From the sequence record OX090893: 64,000 nt of DNA. One strand, 5' to 3'. How positions within the stretch are numbered: position 1 is the stretch's first letter; the number at the start of each line of letters is the position of its first letter. The translations under genes and the position numbers were made by a program. Shown one piece after another: positions 17,566 through 50,234 of the stretch. Below the pieces are notes generated by a model that saw only the letters and a list, made by a program, of their open reading frames with translations, searched no databases and had not been told where the DNA came from. The DNA comes from Escherichia phage vB_Eco_PATM.

Positions 17566-17934
17566 CTAATTAATGTCAGCACTATGATTGTTGAGAGTAT
17601 AGGATACTCCATCGCCCAAGTCAACATGAATCTCAACTCCTAACTGTCTTTCTAATGGTAAACGTTTTGAGAATTGATAATTACAAAGTTTACAGTCTAA
17701 GTCAAGCAACTCATGTTTGCTTAAACCTGCGACGATAACTTTGCTCCCCACTGTCCACTCAATACCTTCAAAGTTATCTCTTCTTTTCAAAATGTCAAGT
17801 AAGAAGATGATTTGTTGCCATTCCGTAGACAAGTCTTCTTCATAGAATGCAGAACAAAAAGTTTTATCATCGTAGAAAGCATACATTATGCCTCCATCTA
17901 TTGTTTCACTTCTAACGTAACGTGTGACCCTCAT
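17566..17934 (-). CDS. Hypothetical protein (122 aa), first gene of the leftward block
   Basis: ORF starting next to the divergent intergenic region. Confidence 0.45.
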   Translation of the reverse strand: MRVTRYVRSETIDGGIMYAFYDDKTFCSAFYEEDLSTEWQQIIFLLDILKRRDNFEGIEWTVGSKVIVAGLSKHELLDLDCKLCNYQFSKRLPLERQLGVEIHVDLGDGVSYTLNNHSADIN

Positions 17935-18065
17935 TATTCCCTCCTGTATGGCTCTGTAACGAGCTAATGGCCTCTAAGATATGCAATCACCTTACCTCAC
18001 AGTAAAACTCGTTACAATCGTTTTTAGGAGGTTCAGGTTGTACTTAAAAATAATCTAAAAAGGTG

Positions 18066-18094
18066 TTGACAAACGCAAAAAAGTATGCTACCCT
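18066..18094 (+). promoter_or_regulatory. Sigma70-like promoter (TTGACA-17-TACCCT, weak -10)
   Basis: TTGACA at 18066-18071 within the AT-rich divergent region. Confidence 0.35.
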
Positions 18095-18276
18095 AACCCC
18101 CGAAAAACGCCGAGCGCAGCGAGGTGGGTGTTATCTAATCTTGTGATACATGATCTAACAGACAACTGAGTAGTCTACACATAGCACTATGTTATGTCTC
18201 TAATACTAACATACATACTCTATACTAACAATAGATTCTTTATTAATTTTATTATTAATTAAATAATAAATATCTA

Positions 18277-18305
18277 TTGACTTTAGATTTATCTGTATGT
18301 AGAGT
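18277..18305 (+). promoter_or_regulatory. Sigma70-like promoter (TTGACT-17-TAGAGT)
   Basis: Hexamers with 17 nt spacer about 40 nt upstream of the 18345 start; RBS AAGGAG precedes the ATG. Confidence 0.55.
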
Positions 18306-18344
18306 AGAGAACATAAAGTCCTAACTCAACTAAGGAGATAAACA

Positions 18345-19238
18345 ATGAAAGTTAGTATTCTACATGGTGTTGGCTGTTATGTTACTGATGTAGACGTTAA
18401 AGTCTTTACATTCTCTGGTGGAGAACAACATGTTCAACTAGACACGAATCTATCAGGTTTCAATCATGCTACAGACAGAATCTTACTCTCTTTAGAAGTA
18501 AGATCTGCTAAAGACTTGATGACTTTGGTTATGACTAAGAATGCATTGGACAATATGCTATATCATAAACCATATTGTGTTGATTTGCTCATGTTGTATG
18601 TGCCATATGCACGACAAGACAGAGTGTGTGAACCTGGGGAAGCATTCGGAGTTAAAGCATTTGCTTCTATAATTAATTCATTAAATTTCTCACGTGTTAT
18701 CGTTGCTGATCCACATAGTGATGTTACTCCAGCAGTGTTTGACAGACTCTGTGTAATACCTCAAGAAGAGATTGCTTACGAAACTTTAAAGTGGAAGTTA
18801 CGTATGGAGAATTTTGCTCTTGTTAGTCCTGATGGTGGTGCTCTTAAGAAAATATTTAAATTATCTAAGAAAATGTCTTTAGATGTGTTCTGTGCAGAGA
18901 AGGTTAGAGATACTGCAACAGGTGCTATTGTTCGTACAGACATTTCTGTACAGGATTTCAATAAGCGTAACCTGATGATCGTAGATGATATCTGTGATGG
19001 TGGTAGAACTTTTATTGAGTTGGCTAAAGTGCTACGTGCTCGTAACGCAGGTAAGATTGAGTTATATGTTACACACGGTATCTTTTCTAAAGGTCTTAAA
19101 GAGTTAAGTGAGCACTTTGACTGCATTCATTCTCTTAATGTGTGGGAAGATAACATCCAAGAAGATTCCGGTGTTCTTGTTAAGAATCAGTCAGATTTGC
19201 AACAACAAATTGTATCTCCATACGTGTGGAATTTTTAA
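18345..19238 (+). CDS. Ribose-phosphate pyrophosphokinase (PRPP synthetase)-like enzyme; candidate ADP-ribose pyrophosphate synthetase of an NAD+ reconstitution pathway
   Basis: 297 aa; PRPP-binding loop LMIVDDICDGGRT; directly followed by a NAMPT-like gene. Confidence 0.65.
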   Translation: MKVSILHGVGCYVTDVDVKVFTFSGGEQHVQLDTNLSGFNHATDRILLSLEVRSAKDLMTLVMTKNALDNMLYHKPYCVDLLMLYVPYARQDRVCEPGEAFGVKAFASIINSLNFSRVIVADPHSDVTPAVFDRLCVIPQEEIAYETLKWKLRMENFALVSPDGGALKKIFKLSKKMSLDVFCAEKVRDTATGAIVRTDISVQDFNKRNLMIVDDICDGGRTFIELAKVLRARNAGKIELYVTHGIFSKGLKELSEHFDCIHSLNVWEDNIQEDSGVLVKNQSDLQQQIVSPYVWNF

Positions 19239-21789: not shown

Positions 21790-21865
21790 GGTTCCATAGC
21801 TCACTGACGAGAGCGCACACCTCATAAGTGTCGAGGGCAGGGATTGTAACCCTGGGGAACCACCA
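21790..21865 (+). tRNA. tRNA, anticodon CAT (Met/Ile2-type), atypical T-loop
   Basis: Hand-folded cloverleaf: acceptor GGTTCCA/GGGAACC, D-stem GCTC/GAGC, anticodon loop CTCATAA, encoded CCA; T-loop ATTGTAA is non-canonical. Confidence 0.55.
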
Positions 21866-21896
21866 TTTAAAAGGAGGTGCTATGCATCTCCTATAT

Positions 21897-21982
21897 GCAA
21901 GTGTGGTGGAATTGGTGATACACATTGTGCTTAAAACGCAACGCTTAAATGCTTGAGGGTTCGAATCCCTCCACTTGCACCA
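21897..21982 (+). tRNA. tRNA-Leu (anticodon TAA)
   Basis: Acceptor GCAAGTG/CACTTGC, anticodon loop CTTAAAA, long variable arm, T-arm GAGGGTTCGAATCCCTC, encoded ACCA. Confidence 0.75.
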
Positions 21983-21984
21983 AC

Positions 21985-22090
21985 GCCTAGTAGGGTATTT
22001 GGTAATTCCGAGGCCATCAAAGCCTGAAAAATATGTTAGACCACTTTGTCTAACTAAATACGAAATATGGTTCGATTCCATAACTAGGCT
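21985..22090 (+). tRNA. Atypical tRNA-like element (106 nt; perfect acceptor and T-arm but about 30 nt extra internal sequence)
   Basis: Acceptor GCCTAGT/ACTAGGC and T-arm TATGG-TTCGATT-CCATA are canonical, but the interior has a 7-bp hairpin GTTAGAC-N6-GTCTAAC and no clean anticodon arm; no encoded CCA. Confidence 0.35.
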
Positions 22091-22124
22091 TCAATTTAAA
22101 TAATAATTTTTTAGTAAAAATATC

Positions 22125-22153
22125 TTGACATTTACTTAGTTTTTTGTTATAGT
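22125..22153 (+). promoter_or_regulatory. Sigma70-like promoter (TTGACA-17-TATAGT)
   Basis: Near-consensus hexamers 11 nt upstream of the next tRNA-like gene. Confidence 0.55.
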
Positions 22154-22164
22154 TACTGTGAAAA

Positions 22165-22246
22165 CGGGGTGTATCTCACCTGACTTCTAATCAGGCGTTA
22201 ACCGAGTAATTGGAGTATGCAGGTTCGAATCCTGTCACCCCGACCA
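22165..22246 (+). tRNA. Atypical tRNA-like gene, anticodon loop CTTCTAA (TCT, Arg-like); D-arm not foldable by eye
   Basis: Acceptor CGGGGTG/CACCCCG, perfect anticodon arm CCTGA-CTTCTAA-TCAGG, T-arm GCAGG-TTCGAAT-CCTGT, encoded CCA; only 7 nt between acceptor and anticodon stem, 23 nt variable region. Confidence 0.4.
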
Positions 22247-22310
22247 AAAAAGTTTTAAAAACTACTTGACAAGCAAGATAGTTTTATGTTAGATTTAAAG
22301 TATGATAACG

Positions 22311-22400
22311 GGAAGGTAGGGCGCAGCGGTGCGCAACCAGGTTTGAACCCTGGCCCATTGTAGCGATACGGTGATGGTTCGACTCCATTATCTTCCTCCA
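22311..22400 (+). tRNA. tRNA-Ser (anticodon TGA)
   Basis: Acceptor GGAAGGT/ATCTTCC, anticodon arm CCAGG-TTTGAAC-CCTGG, long variable arm, encoded CCA. Confidence 0.75.
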
Positions 22401-22418
22401 AATTCGCTTAGGAGCTTT

Positions 22419-22571
22419 ATGAATTATAAAACTATTGGACAGGTTGTTACCGGAGTTAAGATTGTAAATAATAAAGTTGTTTATGAGTATTCTAATCTTC
22501 AACAATCTGAAGATGGTAAGAATATTCGTATGGTAAAATCAGAACAAAAAGATTCCGGTTGTTTTGAATAA
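22419..22571 (+). CDS. Small hypothetical protein (50 aa) between tRNA genes
   Basis: ATG at 22419 preceded by RBS AGGAG; the longer ORF-track version starts inside the tRNA. Confidence 0.3.
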   Translation: MNYKTIGQVVTGVKIVNNKVVYEYSNLQQSEDGKNIRMVKSEQKDSGCFE

Positions 22572-22579
22572 TTAAGAAC

Positions 22580-22665
22580 GGTAGATTGGTGAAATGGTAG
22601 CCACAACAGTTTGCTAAACTGTCGTCGGAAACGGCGTGTAGGTTCAAGTCCTACATCTACCGCCA
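22580..22665 (+). tRNA. tRNA-Ser (anticodon GCT)
   Basis: Acceptor GGTAGAT/ATCTACC, anticodon arm ACAGT-TTGCTAA-ACTGT, long variable arm, T-arm GTAGG-TTCAAGT-CCTAC, encoded CCA. Confidence 0.75.
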
Positions 22666-22715
22666 AGTTATCTTTAATGTAGCTTGTTGCTCTTAGTTGC
22701 TTGGTGTAACTTTTT

Positions 22716-22790
22716 GGAAGGATGGCTGCAACCATCTTACTTTAATAGAGTAAACTTTCGGCAGATGGCCCCCACCATCTTACCGATACC
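22716..22790 (+). repeat. Two related hairpins sharing CCATCTTAC (GGATGG-CTGCAA-CCATCTTAC and AGATGG-CCCCCA-CCATCTTAC)
   Basis: Seen directly in the inter-tRNA spacer; function unknown. Confidence 0.4.
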
Positions 22791-22835
22791 TCATAGTTAG
22801 TGGTGCGAACACTGGCTATTTTAAAGATAATTTAT

Positions 22836-22911
22836 ACATCGTTAGCTTAGTTGGTAGAGCAAGGGGCTTTTAACTCCAAGGTCGAAGGTTCGAATCCTTC
22901 ACGATGTACCA
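22836..22911 (+). tRNA. tRNA-Lys (anticodon TTT)
   Basis: Acceptor ACATCGT/ACGATGT, D-loop AGTTGGTA, anticodon loop CTTTTAA, T-arm GAAGG-TTCGAAT-CCTTC, encoded CCA. Confidence 0.7.
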
Positions 22912-22916
22912 AACAC

Positions 22917-23003
22917 GTAGGTATCGCATAGCGGCAATTGCTGGAGACTGTAAATCTCCTGCCCTTCGGGGCTTCGTTGGTTCGAGTCCAACTACCTGCA
23001 CCA
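22917..23003 (+). tRNA. tRNA-Tyr (anticodon GTA)
   Basis: Acceptor GTAGGTA/TACCTGC, anticodon arm GGAGA-CTGTAAA-TCTCC, long variable arm, encoded CCA. Confidence 0.7.
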
Positions 23004-23010
23004 AATTAAA

Positions 23011-23095
23011 GATGGATTGGCCTAGTGGTTGGGCGACGGACTGTTAATCCGTGAACGAAAGTTCTAGCAAGGTTCAAATCCTTGATCCATCGCCA
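23011..23095 (+). tRNA. tRNA with anticodon GTT (Asn) and an unusually long hairpin variable arm
   Basis: Acceptor GATGGAT/ATCCATC, anticodon arm ACGGA-CTGTTAA-TCCGT, variable hairpin GAAC-GAAA-GTTC, T-arm CAAGG-TTCAAAT-CCTTG, encoded CCA. Confidence 0.5.
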
Positions 23096-23099
23096 AATA

Positions 23100-23167
23100 G
23101 TGCTTGTAGAGTTAATAGAAACCTCTAGAATTTTCTAGAATTGTAGGTATCAAATCCTACCAAGCAA
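23100..23167 (+). pseudogene. Degenerate tRNA-like element (anticodon arm replaced by the palindrome TCTAGAATTTTCTAGA)
   Basis: Acceptor-like TGCTTG/CAAGCA, D-stem AGAG/CTCT and a T-arm-like GTAGG-TATCAAAT-CCTAC, but the central hairpin has a 4-nt loop and no anticodon loop; no CCA. Confidence 0.3.
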
Positions 23168-23174
23168 ATATTTT

Positions 23175-23249
23175 GCTCCTATCGTATAACGGCTATTACG
23201 GTTGCCTTGTAAGCAACTTATCAGGGTTCGAGTCCTTGTGGGAGCACCA
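23175..23249 (+). tRNA. tRNA-Thr (anticodon TGT)
   Basis: Acceptor GCTCCTA/TGGGAGC, anticodon arm GTTGC-CTTGTAA-GCAAC, T-arm CAGGG-TTCGAGT-CCTTG, encoded CCA. Confidence 0.7.
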
Positions 23250-23270
23250 ATTTAACTCTAAAGGAGTGTA

Positions 23271-23595
23271 TGTGACAGAAAAAGAGTTAGAGAAATATTT
23301 TAATATCAATGTTTTCGATGGTTTTGATGATATTGAAGATGTTGAAAGATATTATGAAGTAGAGTTAGATAAGGATAACATTGTAATTCTTTCTGCCACT
23401 TATGATTGTGCATATTATGAAGGTGAATCTCACGTTTATTTTTATGATATGAAAACATCTTTGTTTTATGAAGTACACGCATATCATTGTTCTTGTTATG
23501 GTTTAGAAGGTCAGTGGGAACCTGAAGAAATAGGTGATTTGGACTTTACTATTGCATATCTAAACAGACGTGGTGCATCTACTATTTTAAAATAA
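23271..23595 (+). CDS. Hypothetical protein (about 108 aa) inside the tRNA island; probable GTG start
   Basis: RBS AAGGAG then GTG at 23271; the longer ORF-track version starts inside tRNA-Thr. Confidence 0.4.
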
Positions 23596-23609
23596 ATATC
23601 AAAAGCCTC

Positions 23610-23639
23610 TTGACAAAGGGGCTAATAATATGTTAGAGT
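23610..23639 (+). promoter_or_regulatory. Sigma70-like promoter (TTGACA-18-TAGAGT)
   Basis: Hexamers upstream of tRNA-Gly. Confidence 0.45.
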
Positions 23640-23650
23640 AATATTGTTAA

Positions 23651-23725
23651 GCGGGTATAGTGTTAATGGTAGCATATGAGGTTTCCACCCTCCAGGTGCA
23701 GGTTCAAGTCCTGTTACTCGCTCCA
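23651..23725 (+). tRNA. tRNA-Gly (anticodon TCC)
   Basis: Acceptor GCGGGTA/TACTCGC, anticodon loop TTTCCAC, T-arm GCAGG-TTCAAGT-CCTGT, encoded CCA. Confidence 0.7.
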
Positions 23726-23824
23726 AGATTATTTAAATGGAATCGCTAGAGAAAATTTCTCTTTTCGCTCATGGTTTTCTCCTTCAAACTCTAGCGGTTC
23801 TTTTTAAGTGATTTTTAGTTTTAT

Positions 23825-23899
23825 TGGAGATTAGCCTAGTGGGAAGGCAACGGCCTTTGAAGTCGTGATGACTAGGTTCGATTCCTAGATCTCCAGCCA
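23825..23899 (+). tRNA. tRNA-Gln (anticodon TTG)
   Basis: Acceptor TGGAGAT/ATCTCCA, anticodon arm ACGGC-CTTTGAA-GTCGT, T-arm CTAGG-TTCGATT-CCTAG, encoded CCA. Confidence 0.7.
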
Positions 23900-23941
23900 A
23901 TTAATTGCATAGCATGAGTATTTCTCATTGGTTAAAAGGAG

Positions 23942-24307
23942 ATGCAAGTGAATTGTGAACATTGTGGTAGTGAGTTTACTTTGATAAAAGGTCATGGTGG
24001 ACAAAACAGATCATACTGTTACACTTGTATTCCAGAAGGTTTAGATAAACAAGTACGCACAAGATTACATCAAGAGCTTAGAAGAGAGCGATCTCATAAG
24101 ATGAAACTTGATTTAGGTTGCAAAGTGTGTGGTTATGCTAAATGTGCAGTAGCACTAGAATGGCATCACCCAGAGGACGATAAGAAACACGATCCATCAA
24201 ATGCAATCAAAAGATCTTGGTCTGCTTACTTAGAAGAGACTGAAAAGTGTATCTTACTGTGTGCCAATTGTCATAGAGAAGTACATGCTGGTCTTATACA
24301 GGTTTAA
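23942..24307 (+). CDS. HNH homing-endonuclease-like protein embedded in the tRNA cluster
   Basis: 121 aa; N-terminal CEHCG zinc finger; HNH core LEWHHPEDDKKHDPSNAIKR ... LLCANCHREVH; RBS AAAGGAG upstream; stop abuts tRNA-Pro. Confidence 0.75.
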   Translation: MQVNCEHCGSEFTLIKGHGGQNRSYCYTCIPEGLDKQVRTRLHQELRRERSHKMKLDLGCKVCGYAKCAVALEWHHPEDDKKHDPSNAIKRSWSAYLEETEKCILLCANCHREVHAGLIQV

Positions 24308-24308
24308 T

Positions 24309-24384
24309 CAGTGCGTAGCGCAGTTGGTAGCGTGGGAGCCTTGGACGCTTCAGGTCGCAGGTTCGAGTCCTGCCGCACTGACCA
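24309..24384 (+). tRNA. tRNA-Pro (anticodon TGG)
   Basis: Acceptor CAGTGCG/CGCACTG, D-arm GCGC-AGTTGGTA-GCGT, anticodon arm GGAGC-CTTGGAC-GCTTC, T-arm GCAGG-TTCGAGT-CCTGC, encoded CCA. Confidence 0.75.
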
Positions 24385-24389
24385 AATTT

Positions 24390-24464
24390 GCAGAGATAGC
24401 TGAGACGGATTAGTGCTACCCTGAAAAGGTAGAAAGGATGGATCGTTACCATCTCTCTGCACCA
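24390..24464 (+). tRNA. tRNA-Phe (anticodon GAA), atypical T-loop
   Basis: Acceptor GCAGAGA/TCTCTGC, anticodon arm CTACC-CTGAAAA-GGTAG, T-arm GATGG-ATCGTTA-CCATC, encoded CCA. Confidence 0.6.
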
Positions 24465-24541
24465 AATAACACCATCCAAGGAGTAGACTTGGTTAACTGT
24501 CAATAGCACATTGAGGCTTCTTACAGTGGTGTACTTATTAT

Positions 24542-24626
24542 GGCTAAGTGGTGGAATGGTATACACGATACGCTTAGAACGTATTGCCCCAGGGGATTGT
24601 GAGTTCGAGTCTCACCTTAGCTACCA
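24542..24626 (+). tRNA. tRNA-Leu (anticodon TAG)
   Basis: Acceptor GGCTAAG/CTTAGCT, anticodon arm ATACG-CTTAGAA-CGTAT, variable hairpin CCCC-A-GGGG, T-arm GTGAG-TTCGAGT-CTCAC, encoded CCA. Confidence 0.75.
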
Positions 24627-24714
24627 TATCTAAGAGATATCATAGGGTTTGCAACGGATATCCACCGTCCTATTAAGGATACCACGCCAAGACGGGTTGT
24701 AAAGGGTTAGCCAT

Positions 24715-24790
24715 TGATAGTGTGAAGCTGGCGTTTCGAGTGCTTTCATAAGGCATTGCGAGAAGAGTTCGATTCTCTTACTATCAACCA
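24715..24790 (+). tRNA. tRNA with anticodon CAT (Met/Ile2-type)
   Basis: Acceptor TGATAGT/ACTATCA, anticodon arm GTGCT-TTCATAA-GGCAT with wobble pairs, T-arm AAGAG-TTCGATT-CTCTT, encoded CCA. Confidence 0.55.
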
Positions 24791-24805
24791 AATTATTACA
24801 GATTG

Positions 24806-24884
24806 TGCGGGATAGAGGAGTCTGGTCGTCCTCGCCAGTTTCATATGCTGGAGATCATCGGTTCGAATCCGATTCCCGCCTCCA
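24806..24884 (+). tRNA. tRNA with anticodon CAT and unpaired 1:72 position (initiator-like)
   Basis: Acceptor TGCGGGA/TCCCGCC with mismatch at the first pair, D-arm GAGG/CCTC, anticodon arm CCAGT-TTCATAT-GCTGG, T-arm ATCGG-TTCGAAT-CCGAT, encoded CCA. Confidence 0.5.
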
Positions 24885-24942
24885 ATAAATACCTCCCTTC
24901 TGGTGTAATGATTAAGTTACATTGACACTTCAAGGAACTCAT

Positions 24943-25025
24943 AGCCGGGTAGATTTAAAAGAGTATGGTACTCAATATGGCTCCAAACCATAGATCAGGG
25001 GGTTCGATTCCTCACCTTGCTGCCA
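24943..25025 (+). tRNA. tRNA-Trp-like (anticodon CCA), irregular acceptor/D region
   Basis: Clear anticodon arm TATGG-CTCCAAA-CCATA and T-arm GGGGG-TTCGATT-CCTCA with encoded CCA; 5' acceptor only pairs 6 of 7 and D-region is long; start coordinate approximate. Confidence 0.4.
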
Positions 25026-25030
25026 ATTAT

Positions 25031-25106
25031 TGTGGTATCGTACAGATGGTTAGTACACTCGACCGATAATCGAGAAACAACGGTTCGACTCCGTTTACCA
25101 CGACCA
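25031..25106 (+). tRNA. tRNA-Ile (anticodon GAT)
   Basis: Acceptor TGTGGTA/TACCACG, anticodon arm CTCGA-CCGATAA-TCGAG, T-arm AACGG-TTCGACT-CCGTT, encoded CCA. Confidence 0.6.
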
Positions 25107-48158: not shown

Positions 48159-50234
48159 ATGAAACAGGCTATTTTTACTGTAACTCGAAATACGAGAGTA
48201 AATGCCAGTTCATTCAGCTATAAGACCGTCGATGGAACGGCGGTCGCTGGTAGAGATTATGTAGCTAAACAGGGAACAGTAACGTTCCCTTCTGATGCAG
48301 ATTCTGCTACTGTAGTGGTTGATGTATATGAACGTCCGGCAAACTCTTTAGATCTTTATTTTACTCTTGAGATTACTAGCATAAGTCAAAATAACATGAT
48401 GATCAACGAAGAAATTCGTTGTGTTATTACGACTGATCAATCGAATACAACCCCGCTAACTTGGCCTGTTGTGAAGTCTAGAATGTTTGATCCTAAGTTT
48501 TGGACAATAGATTCTCAAGCAACAGAAAGTTGTTCTATTATCTCTAATGGTGATTCTTTCACAGCAAGAATGGTTAATAGGACAGTGGCTGGTCTTGCTG
48601 GGATTATTTGGTCAACTTACGATAAATATGATCACAAAGGATTAGGCTACCAAGAACATTCTGACTTAAGTAAAGAGAAACTTTGGTTTAAAATGGAACT
48701 TAGTCAAGGTGTTCCTGGATTAAAAGAAGAAAAATTAATACCATCCTTAACAGTGACACTGAAGGATGAAACAGTTCATTATGTATCTCTAAACTTTTAT
48801 GCAGAAGAAGTTTCAGAAGATGGTAAGACAGCAACAATCAAACTAGATTTCTCAAATTTAAAATCTGGGCCAGAAAATGATATTGTTGTTGACACTACAC
48901 AGATAGATAATATGTTCTTCTCCTTGATCTCCACAAGGTATCAAGAAATTGAAGATATTATTCCTGTAGACAATGTGGATCTTTCCTTTAAGTTTACCAT
49001 ACTGGAGCCTGATACTGGTTACAGTATGATGAATATGGGTAATTTAAATGTTCCAGCACACACCATAAGAATGTGTACATCTTATGATGATATGTATAAC
49101 CTGACCCCAGAGCGAGTTATTTCTAACACCTACAGATTAGGTTATAGGGATATGATTAACCATTATAATGGTATGTCACACTATTATCAGTTTAGTTGGG
49201 ATGCTGGTTCTAATAAATGGGTTTTGAATAGAACAGAATATTTAAACCCAGCAACAGAAGCATGGTTTGATAATTTCCACGCTAATGCAAAAGCTATGGG
49301 CTACACAGTAATGAACTCCTTAAGTTTTGAACTTATGAGTACAGTGTGTCCTGTAGAATGGGTTCAACATACTTGGAATGATGATCTGGCTGCTACAGGT
49401 TATGAGCCACCAAGTTATGTTTTATCTCCTTCAATTGATGAAGGGATGAATTATTTACAAGGTGTAATAAATAAGATAGCTTCTATATCCGCTGCCAATG
49501 ATCTTCCTGTTATTATTCAGGTTGGTGAACCGTGGTGGTGGTATAACACAGCTACCAATCTACCGTGTATTTATGATTATACAACCAAAGTTGCATTTAA
49601 TAATGAAACTGGATTATATGCACAAGATGTTGGTACAGTTAAGAATTATAAAACTGGTACACCATATGATGAATATTATGCATTCCTATCTAAAACATTA
49701 GGACTGCGTGTTGCTAAATTTGCAACAGATACTAGATTAGCATATCCTGGGGCTAAAGTTACATTATTACCATTTGTGCCATCCATTTTAGGTAACGGTA
49801 TGATGGAGTTTGTTAACTTCCCTAAAGATTATTATATCCCAGAAAACTTTGACTTTTATTGTTCAGAATGTTATGACTGGTTGTTGGAAGGTCAGATGGA
49901 AAGATCTTTCGACGCTATTAAAATACCTAATGAGCAACTAGGTTTTAGTTATGATAAGATACATTATCTTGCAGGGTTTGTTCCAGATGCAACTCTAGCA
50001 CCATTATATGGCTTTGATCCTGAATCAGACTACAGAACATATTTGTGGAAAATGATTATAGGTAATATTGTATTGAATGACCAGAAGTTTGTTGGTTTGT
50101 ATCAATACATATGGGCTTATCCACAAATTATGGCAGATTCATTAACTGTTCTTAATTCAAAATCCCAAGTTTTTTATATGGGTAACGTACCTCTGAATGT
50201 CTTTTTACAAGATACAGTATATGTTTCTTCTTAA
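48159..50234 (+). CDS. Large structural protein (691 aa)
   Basis: Long ORF with RBS AAGGAAA. Confidence 0.45.
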   Translation: MKQAIFTVTRNTRVNASSFSYKTVDGTAVAGRDYVAKQGTVTFPSDADSATVVVDVYERPANSLDLYFTLEITSISQNNMMINEEIRCVITTDQSNTTPLTWPVVKSRMFDPKFWTIDSQATESCSIISNGDSFTARMVNRTVAGLAGIIWSTYDKYDHKGLGYQEHSDLSKEKLWFKMELSQGVPGLKEEKLIPSLTVTLKDETVHYVSLNFYAEEVSEDGKTATIKLDFSNLKSGPENDIVVDTTQIDNMFFSLISTRYQEIEDIIPVDNVDLSFKFTILEPDTGYSMMNMGNLNVPAHTIRMCTSYDDMYNLTPERVISNTYRLGYRDMINHYNGMSHYYQFSWDAGSNKWVLNRTEYLNPATEAWFDNFHANAKAMGYTVMNSLSFELMSTVCPVEWVQHTWNDDLAATGYEPPSYVLSPSIDEGMNYLQGVINKIASISAANDLPVIIQVGEPWWWYNTATNLPCIYDYTTKVAFNNETGLYAQDVGTVKNYKTGTPYDEYYAFLSKTLGLRVAKFATDTRLAYPGAKVTLLPFVPSILGNGMMEFVNFPKDYYIPENFDFYCSECYDWLLEGQMERSFDAIKIPNEQLGFSYDKIHYLAGFVPDATLAPLYGFDPESDYRTYLWKMIIGNIVLNDQKFVGLYQYIWAYPQIMADSLTVLNSKSQVFYMGNVPLNVFLQDTVYVSS

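Follow-up and report, generated by a model that had tools for sequence, protein, structure and literature searches.

A probable divergent promoter region and a repeated promoter-plus-GA-hairpin cassette in a phi92-like Escherichia phage

The closest described counterparts of the region considered here are the divergent early regions of rV5-like phages, in which a non-coding gap likewise separates two long diverging transcription units. Their promoters, and UP-assisted sigma-70 phage promoters generally, are built on TTGACA and a 17-nt spacer, some with an extended -10, and carry an A/T tract directly 5' of the -35. We analysed a window of 64,000 nucleotides (nt), the whole stretch of DNA taken from Escherichia phage vB_Eco_PATM (OX090893), a phi92-like phage of the genus Justusliebigvirus. 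Within this window the 410-nt gap at 17935-18344 has the same plan, but it differs from the rV5-like regions in two respects. Two predicted rightward promoters stand in tandem, 211 bp apart, and the first of them, P1, joins an invariant non-consensus -10, TACCCT, to a conserved transcribed hairpin.

We consider it likely that the gap is a conserved divergent promoter region with tandem promoters P1 and P2, an UP element and a hairpin cassette. A previous sequence-only reading had proposed a divergent control region with at least two plus-strand sigma70-like promoters, together with regulator-binding sites or a replication origin. The control region and the two promoters have held, the layout being conserved in a distant clade; the origin gained no specific support, and the AT-rich run is better taken as an UP element. 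The region is mostly ordinary, and its interest lies in the promoter-plus-GA-hairpin cassette.

The probable divergent promoter region

The rightward features of the gap are as follows:

18066-18094, plus strand: predicted promoter P1, with -35 TTGACA (18066-71), a 17-nt spacer, TGc (18086-88) and -10 TACCCT (18089-94)
18110-18124, plus strand: GA mini-hairpin CCGAGC-GCA-GCGAGG (CCGAGCGCAGCGAGG), the non-template strand having the RNA sense
18239-18273, plus strand: pure A/T run of 35 nt, read as the UP element of P2
18277-18305, plus strand: predicted promoter P2, with -35 TTGACT (18277-82), a 17-nt spacer and -10 TAGAGT (18300-05)

The window was aligned with a clade of Klebsiella phages (KP2025, KP13-26 and phi1_175008) and a 148.7-kb IMG/VR contig, in which the ribose-phosphate pyrophosphokinase (PRPP synthetase) is about 62% identical and the same divergent junction is kept. 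The order common to both clades is leftward promoter, rightward P1, leader, AT run and rightward P2. Identity is confined to discrete blocks, and the sequence between the blocks has diverged:

minus strand: leftward ribosome-binding site, CCTCCTGTAT
plus strand: -35 of P1, GGT(G/A)TTGAC
plus strand: extended -10 of P1, (A/G)TGCTACCCTAA
plus strand: hairpin, GCCGAGCG(C/A)AGCGAGG
plus strand: A/T tract ending ATAAATA(T/A)CTATTGAC
plus strand: -10 region of P2, TATGTA(G/C)A(G/C)TAG
plus strand: rightward ribosome-binding site

Both promoters are thus conserved block by block in the Klebsiella clade, and the architecture of P1 is invariant across the clades. P1 is of the extended -10 type, with its -35 at the spacing proper to sigma-70 and with TGn followed by T-12, A-11 and T-7. 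The pattern TTGACA-N14-TGnTAnnnT occurs 10 times in the window against 3.0 expected, mostly on the strand of its own transcription unit. Judged from the sequence, the P1 transcript is predicted to start near G18102.

At P2, both CTATTGAC and TATGTA(G/C)A(G/C)TAG are kept across clades. The extremely AT-rich run that the sequence-only reading had pointed out is 35 nt of pure A/T and ends 3 nt before the P2 -35. Only three pure A/T runs of at least 18 nt occur in the 64 kb, the other two being:

22093-22113: A/T run ending a few bases before TTGACA-N17-TATAGT, in the tRNA region (22093-22153)
30651-30684: A/T run ending a few bases before TTGACA-N17-TAGACT (30651-30720), just after a 522-amino-acid open reading frame (ORF) that ends at 30657

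The promoters at 22093-22153 and 30651-30720 look strong from their sequence. All three runs therefore lie directly 5' of a TTGAC(A/T)-N17-TA...T promoter, so that an UP element serving a strong sigma-70 promoter is the economical interpretation. The run at 18239-18273 is best read as the UP element of P2, being an A/T tract at about -38 to -60 upstream of consensus-like -35 and -10 elements and conserved across clades. Its length differs by 11-14 nt between isolates in both clades (compared in L007, AV123 and KP13-26), and it stays A/T-rich throughout; the variation looks like slippage of TAAAT/TTAAT units.

The gap lies between a leftward ATG at 17934 and a rightward ATG at 18345, and its immediate neighbours are these:

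17566-17934, minus strand: ORF of 122 amino acids, homolog of phi92 gp106A, with no match in a Pfam search
17932-17944, minus strand: start codon (17934-17932) and ribosome-binding site GGAGG (17944-17940) of the gp106A homolog, from the ORF list and the phi92 annotation
18345-19238, plus strand: ORF for PRPP synthetase, homolog of phi92 gp107
18332-18347, plus strand: ribosome-binding site AAGGAG (18332-37) and ATG (18345) of the gp107 homolog

Downstream of the gp107 homolog come a NAMPT-like gene and then an array of 16 tRNA genes (21790-25106), which is 3.3 kb of untranslated sequence about 3.5 kb 3' of the rightward promoters. The phi92 GenBank record places a 151-nt 'hypothetical tRNA' inside the NAMPT gene (phi92 49736-49886), and ARAGORN finds none at the equivalent place in the window. 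In Klebsiella phage KP2025 (PP919962.1; locus L168 1066-1464) the PRPP synthetase homolog is labelled 'baseplate wedge protein', probably a misannotation; the ortholog in phi1_175008 is annotated ribose-phosphate pyrophosphokinase.

In the 1.5 kb surrounding the gap, the window shares 98-99% identity with Escherichia phages outra and phi92 and with some 50 further Justusliebigvirus genomes. Several records carry the name 'Campylobacter phage' (A150, C3 and B15 among them, with Campylobacter jejuni as host) and, where compared, match these E. coli phages at 98% identity; the host labels or samples of those records are questionable.

The gap had been described as non-coding and as the place where the direction of transcription switches, and both descriptions are borne out. 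There is no ORF of at least 30 amino acids and no tRNA in 17935-18344, on which grounds a hidden gene was rejected. Small ORFs annotated in the gap of some Klebsiella-phage records are not conserved and were likewise rejected as genes, and the phi92 record has no annotation anywhere in the corresponding gap. ORF orientation changes here together with GC skew, which goes from about -0.19 to +0.10 exactly at the gap, the sole place in 62 kb where both switch; the flip in sign is expected because the coding strand changes. In phi92, genes 37-106 run leftward and gene 107 onward runs rightward, so the gap is one of the major divergence points of the genome.

The promoter-plus-hairpin cassette

The hairpin begins 15 nt after the P1 -10, and the two together make up one copy of a cassette. 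A BLAST search with the gap returned short matches to exactly the P1-hairpin stretch in Phapecoctavirus genomes and other Klebsiella phages. With a 69-nt cassette consensus, BLAST found 133 phage records and 245 places, usually at least two places per record. By organism name these records all appear to be Stephanstirmvirinae or close relatives, the groups being Justusliebigvirus, Phapecoctavirus and Klebsiella- or Citrobacter-phage relatives; no Vequintavirinae record is among the BLAST matches listed. A strict pattern, GCTACCCT-N8-20-CGAGCG-N1-3-AGCGAG, scanned in IMG/VR, picked out 15 stretches, with two or three per large contig. By our own estimate a few chance matches are to be expected in a collection of that size, and L027 is a clear one.

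The window holds a single copy, and phi92-like genomes have the cassette at three conserved loci:

phi92 47.9 kb, plus strand: copy 1, the P1 of this gap
phi92 7.94-7.97 kb (FR775895.2, 7941-7975), minus strand: copy 2, in the gap between gp023 and gp024
phi92 129.8 kb, minus strand: copy 3, ahead of a small membrane-protein gene

We tabulated 10 distinct copies, and all 10 share a -35 of the form TT(G/T)AC(A/T), that is TTGAC(A/T) or TTTACT, a 17-nt spacer, TGc and TACCCT. TACCCT is followed by AA in every copy but one (AG in rel62 copy 2). Each copy also has a purine 7-8 nt past the -10, preceded by pyrimidines, which by sequence is a normal start-site context, and the hairpin follows after another 5-9 nt. 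Copy 2 always has the -35 TTTACT and the loop GATA and always lies antisense to the flanking genes, whichever the genus. Since such locus-specific signatures are kept across genera, the triplication is old, and every copy has stayed at its own locus.

The surroundings of the copies differ. Copy 2, found also at L022 3041-3215, L017 8620-8800 and L030 8516-8700, is intergenic and directed against the flanking early genes in three genera, with 120-150 nt of non-coding sequence downstream and then the 3' end of a convergent gene. This arrangement suggests that copy 2 is a candidate antisense or small RNA gene, and thus that at least one cassette may drive a short non-coding or antisense RNA. Downstream of copy 3 (L025 10307-10455; L005 1491-1650; L023 4693-4830; L171 905-1035) there is a long conserved hairpin, AGCTATTCGTTCC...GGGACGGATAGCT, which in Klebsiella-phage contigs is made terminator-like by a T run after it, and then come the ribosome-binding site and ATG of a small membrane protein (MD.MTMRF...); as sequence, it looks like an attenuator. 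In Phapecoctavirus leaders (L003 2560-2660; L006 1590-1680), CGTTAGAT is repeated 3' of the cassette, and AAGAACA / TGTTCTT / AAGAACA allows two mutually exclusive pairings just before the ribosome-binding site, which suggests a switchable leader structure.

Large tRNA arrays in two unrelated viral contigs, L019 (6420-6640) and L029 (5851-5881), are headed by GCTACCCTA...CGAGC-GNRA-GCGAG, in both cases on the minus strand. The L019 sequence stands 3' of a separate TTGCCC-N17-TATAGT promoter, and 60 nt separate it from the first tRNA of an array of more than 25. These may be chance matches at the specificity of the pattern, or they may reflect a link between the hairpin and tRNA-array expression. 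A wider cassette family that takes in L019 and L029 is unproven, since L019 lacks the promoter features and has its separate promoter upstream.

The predicted hairpin pairs C-G, C-G, G.A, A.G, G-C and C-G around a GCA loop and can be extended to 18108-18126. In the predicted P1 RNA it would occupy about +9 to +23, 8-9 nt from the 5' end. Its sequence is unique in the window, where none is expected. Across copies the hairpin has the general form N-C-G-A-G-C / G(N)NA / G-C-G-A-G-N', with loops GCA, GAA, GATA, GGGA, GAAA, GAAT and GAGA. Depending on the copy, the halves stand 1 or 2 nt apart, always giving a tri- or tetraloop closed by G...A, and the outer pair is C-G in most copies, A-T in two and mismatched in two. 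The internal GA/AG we take to be the classic tandem sheared G.A arrangement. Under RNA parameters the same hairpin is the minimum free energy (MFE) structure in six of six variants, with 65-93% of the ensemble. The variable spacing with constant G...A closure, the swap of the outer pair, the sheared G.A pairs and the RNA fold together speak for a single strand that folds rather than for a protein site in double-stranded form. A further mini-hairpin, 3' of the -10 and 5' of the GA hairpin (CAC-GAA-GTG and the like), was dropped because the predicted start purine lies inside it and because copy 2 sequences and the window copy lack it.

The GA core occurs well beyond these phages. A metagenome scan gave 120 matches. 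In 29 of 108 distinct and unrelated metagenome instances, the core sits within at least four further complementary pairs, against about six expected, so it is a recurrent hairpin module in nature. Most of the 120 were set aside as G+C-rich chance matches or as an unrelated recurrent hairpin, CATTCC-GAGCGAAGCGA-GGAATC. The latter, CATTCC-GAGC-GAA/GGA/GATA-GCGA-GGAATC, has the same GA core and is found in many unrelated, often G+C-rich soil metagenome contigs (loci L051, L054, L061, L076, L077, L092, L104, L147, L154 and others). The Ga0058701 contigs carry a second family, GCC-GAGCGGAGCGA-GGC, twice within 75 nt.

The cassette is apparently undescribed: the literature covered, which did not include the phi92 genome paper, held no description of it, and none is annotated in the records examined.

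We propose a model where host sigma-70 RNA polymerase would start rightward at tandem P1 (about 18102) and P2 (about 18312), the region as a whole launching a leftward unit of DNA-metabolism and small genes and a rightward unit of nicotinamide adenine dinucleotide (NAD)-salvage, tRNA and structural genes. P2 would be a standard strong phage promoter, boosted by the 35-nt A/T UP element. The P1 transcript would carry the conserved mini-hairpin, whose stem has tandem G.A pairs and whose loop is GNA or GNNA, P1 and hairpin being one of three anciently triplicated, position-specific copies common to Stephanstirmvirinae. We infer that both are active promoters; with no intrinsic terminator predicted on the plus strand between P1 and P2, both would feed the NAD-salvage genes and the tRNA array. 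The architecture in sequence, the conservation between genera, the number of copies and the predicted fold are shown, whereas promoter activity, start sites and all roles of the hairpin belong to the model. The hairpin would most likely act co-transcriptionally or at the RNA 5' end, or else on the non-template strand with polymerase at about +15 to +30; transcript stabilisation, promoter-proximal pausing and termination resistance or antitermination are candidate roles.

Leader, leftward side and other explanations

Between the hairpin and the A/T run lies a leader with a cluster of short motifs:

18134-18230, plus strand: leader with five CTAAY motifs, at 18135, 18155, 18200, 18206 and 18225

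The cluster has five motifs against 0.6 expected and is the sole such cluster in the 64 kb. The direct repeat reported by the sequence-only reading, ATACTAACA, is indeed there twice, at 18203-11 and 18222-30, as part of this cluster; direct repeats of at least 9 nt arise in 20% of 1000 dinucleotide shuffles, so that the repeat is not significant alone. A 24-nt imperfect repeat starts at 18134 and 18199. Neither the CTAAY motifs nor the inverted repeat of the leftward side is conserved in the Klebsiella clade in the cross-clade alignment.

The leader has no ORF, and it is possible, if unlikely, that P1 is not an mRNA promoter and mainly makes a short non-coding RNA of about 140-175 nt, from about 18102 to the A/T run and paralogous to a copy 2 RNA. 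Copy 2 lends itself to such a view, being intergenic and directed against its flanking genes in three genera with 120-150 nt of non-coding sequence after it, and the regions downstream of copies 1 and 2 share ACTAAC..CTATA..ACTAAC in phi92-like genomes. The two downstream regions do not align, however, and a TGTTAY word shared between them is not significant. No plus-strand intrinsic terminator is predicted before P2. The folding energy of the leader equals that of shuffles (z = 0.02), neither strand showing an excess, the cross-clade consensus fold is weak with little covariation, and no Rfam family matches. A structured small RNA in the window leader was rejected on these folding, terminator, consensus-fold and alignment results.

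The leftward side is less clearly drawn, and two minus-strand features were considered there:

17989-18017, minus strand: candidate leftward promoter, with -35 TTGTAA (18017-18012), N17 and -10 TAAGGT (17994-17989), read from sequence
18103-18121, minus strand: terminator-like hairpin (5-bp stem) with T5, the complement of the GA hairpin and an A5 run; one found against 0.7 expected

TTGTAA-N17-TAAGGT is offered as a leftward promoter with low confidence; a consensus scan missed it, and the block TT(G/C)TAA-N17-TAAGGT recurs only in a short marginal match to phage A7_1 of the Vequintavirinae (BLAST E = 0.1). At the equivalent place the Klebsiella clade has much clearer leftward promoters, TTGACA-N17-TATCAT and TTGACT-N17-TATCTT. 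Leftward transcription would start somewhere within 17985-18065. A minus-strand promoter adjoining the A/T run (TTGTTA-N17-TAGTAT) was rejected, as it does not align with its Klebsiella-clade counterpart. Also rejected was an intrinsic terminator at 18121-18103, since none of the other cassette copies has the T run, nor does the orthologous Klebsiella-clade site; the hairpin there is probably fortuitous.

The sequence-only reading had further noted an inverted repeat spaced by about 50 nt. It is present as TGTAACGAG at 17955-63 and CTCGTTACA at 18008-16, with 44 nt between the arms, the right arm overlapping the candidate leftward -35. A phage or host regulator timing the early switch might use these arms and the short repeats as operators, with two 9-bp arms, their centres 53 bp (about five helical turns) apart, bracketing the leftward promoter. 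We think this improbable. The arms do flank the candidate leftward -10, TGTAACGAG occurs three times in the window where 0.36 would be expected, no second CTAAY cluster exists there, and the equivalent leader of the Klebsiella clade holds other palindromes (TACTATA..TATAGTA). A perfect inverted repeat of at least 9 nt with a gap of up to 100, however, occurs in 19% of 1000 dinucleotide shuffles of the 410 nt and is not significant alone, and this one is not conserved beyond the genus, phage A7_1 offering a weak parallel in ACGAGGT...ACCTCGT. As leftward RNA the repeat (17955-18016) lengthens to a 12-bp stem with two G.U pairs (MFE -23.3 kcal/mol, z = -2.6, 3 of 200 shuffles); the extension is gained only in minus-strand RNA, and this speaks for an RNA hairpin rather than a DNA site.

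The suggestion of a replication origin is highly doubtful. It would have P1 transcription run through CTAAY protein-binding motifs into a pure A/T unwinding element, where an R-loop or a phage primase-helicase would start DNA synthesis in the manner of the T7 primary origin or lambda ori. The order of promoter, five short repeats (two pairs about 20 bp apart) and 35-nt A/T run would fit, as would a G-rich start of the P1 RNA and a cumulative GC-skew minimum at about 18 kb, but that minimum coincides with the coding-strand switch and is confounded with transcription direction, a DnaA-box/IHF scan gave one weak match against two expected, the repeats are cores of 5-7 nt, where iterons would have 17-22 nt, and find no conserved counterpart in the Klebsiella clade, both remaining A/T runs of the window are simply promoter-proximal, and the cassette stands at three loci, one of them directly followed by a gene. 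For rV5 itself the origin could not be located, and skew changes there follow only transcription direction (PMC3606486).

The reading we prefer, a divergent region with tandem P1 and P2, an UP element and the cassette, has several points to its discredit. The P1 -10, TACCCT, matches TATAAT at three of six positions, which are the three critical ones, and failed a generic scan. Across the region generic promoter-like sites number 8 against 5.9 expected in shuffles, so that support for P1 and P2 comes from conservation and not from counts. The leftward promoter is uncertain and cannot be confidently placed, and the model accounts for neither the CTAAY cluster nor the 12-bp minus-strand stem. Covariation in the cassette is limited to one pair, at which two copies are mismatched; such evidence is thin because there are only about a dozen distinct cassette sequences. 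Folding with DNA parameters gives the hairpin little stability, though such parameters model sheared G.A pairs and GNA loops poorly. Finally, we found no transcriptome for Stephanstirmvirinae in the literature.

For experiments, the divergent promoter region and its cassette offer concrete and cheap targets. Phages like phi92 and phAPEC8 are widely isolated as therapy candidates, their transcription programme is essentially unmapped, and the main divergent promoter region and a three-copy cassette have now been located. Should the hairpin prove to govern pausing, the stability of the RNA or antitermination, it would count as a compact regulatory module of a new kind, could be used as a portable part in phage engineering, and would account for the expression of long untranslated tRNA arrays by these phages. 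Otherwise the gap is an ordinary early promoter pair, and genome annotation still gains defined promoter features.

Comparison with known systems

Among repeated phage elements, the T4-type PeSL are terminator/promoter composites present in many copies in hyperplastic regions, where they are recombination points (PMC2839356, PMC4122927). Like the cassette, they are short composites of promoter and stem-loop repeated in the genome of a large lytic myovirus. The cassette cannot be counted among them: it has three copies only, and its hairpin comes after the promoter and is too small for a terminator. Cassette copies, moreover, keep their locus-specific signatures across genera and are therefore old orthologous loci, not the product of recent shuffling.

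Among RNA families, nothing in Rfam reaches the gathering score, whether in the window region or among the 18 related loci scanned, GA-cis (RF02987) being a sub-threshold match only. The 3' hairpin of GA-cis, GCCGCcGAgcGaAagcGAgGGGGC, has the same design of CGAGC, a GNRA-type loop and GCGAG, with a tandem-GA internal loop, and the window aligns to it with high posterior probability. The score, however, is 15.4 bits against a gathering value of 34.7 (E = 0.9-4.9), the model's 5' stem finds its match only if an insertion of 61 nt is allowed, and the window loop has 3 nt and not 4. No match to GA-cis was found among other cassette copies in 7 loci even at E <=3. The cassette is not a member of that family.

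A small leader hairpin just 3' of a promoter is also what ops/RfaH, the lambda nut boxB and the boxB-boxA of rrn P2 leaders have in common with the cassette. It is tempting to speculate that the GA hairpin, as RNA 8-23 nt into the P1 transcript or as non-template DNA in the transcription bubble, is a new sequence class of promoter-proximal elongation-control signal comparable in function to nut, put, ops and the rrn leader, but we regard this as quite unlikely. The hairpin would then modify host RNA polymerase, with or without a phage or host factor, and neither Rho-dependent nor intrinsic termination would stop the modified polymerase in the untranslated leader, at hairpins or terminators further on, or in the 3.3-kb tRNA array. 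A unit with so long an untranslated array would profit from protection against Rho, and the three copies would mark three 'licensed' transcription entry points of Stephanstirmvirinae genomes.

In detail the likeness is partial. In the E. coli rrn P2 leader, TTGACT..TATTAT is followed by GCCGCTGAGAAAAAGCGAAGCGGC, and this by boxA; the hairpin of that leader contains AGCGAAGCG, common to the cassette copies with a GAA loop, at the same distance from a TTGACT promoter. Unlike nut and rrn, the cassette has the hairpin with flanks that lack a boxA consensus (TGCTCTTTAACAA or CGCTCTTA), the best candidate, TGTTATCTAATC, matching at 7 of 12 positions; a boxA-like TGTTAY after the hairpin was rejected, its recurrence not being significant. 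The ops element is a 12-nt sequence, GGCGGTAGnnTG, whose G5 and T6 lie in the loop of a non-template hairpin closed by C3:G8 and read by RfaH (PMC5995543). In the ops hairpin, GGCGGTAGCGTG, a C:G pair closes a G..A loop (PMC5995543), and 9 of its 12 positions agree with cassette copy 2, AGCGATAGCGAG. The window copy, AGCG-CA-GCGAG, differs in its 3-nt GCA loop without G5-T6, and copy 2, with GATA, retains T6 and not G5. The likeness of the cassette to ops and to the rrn leader may serve as a lead, a resemblance and not a membership.

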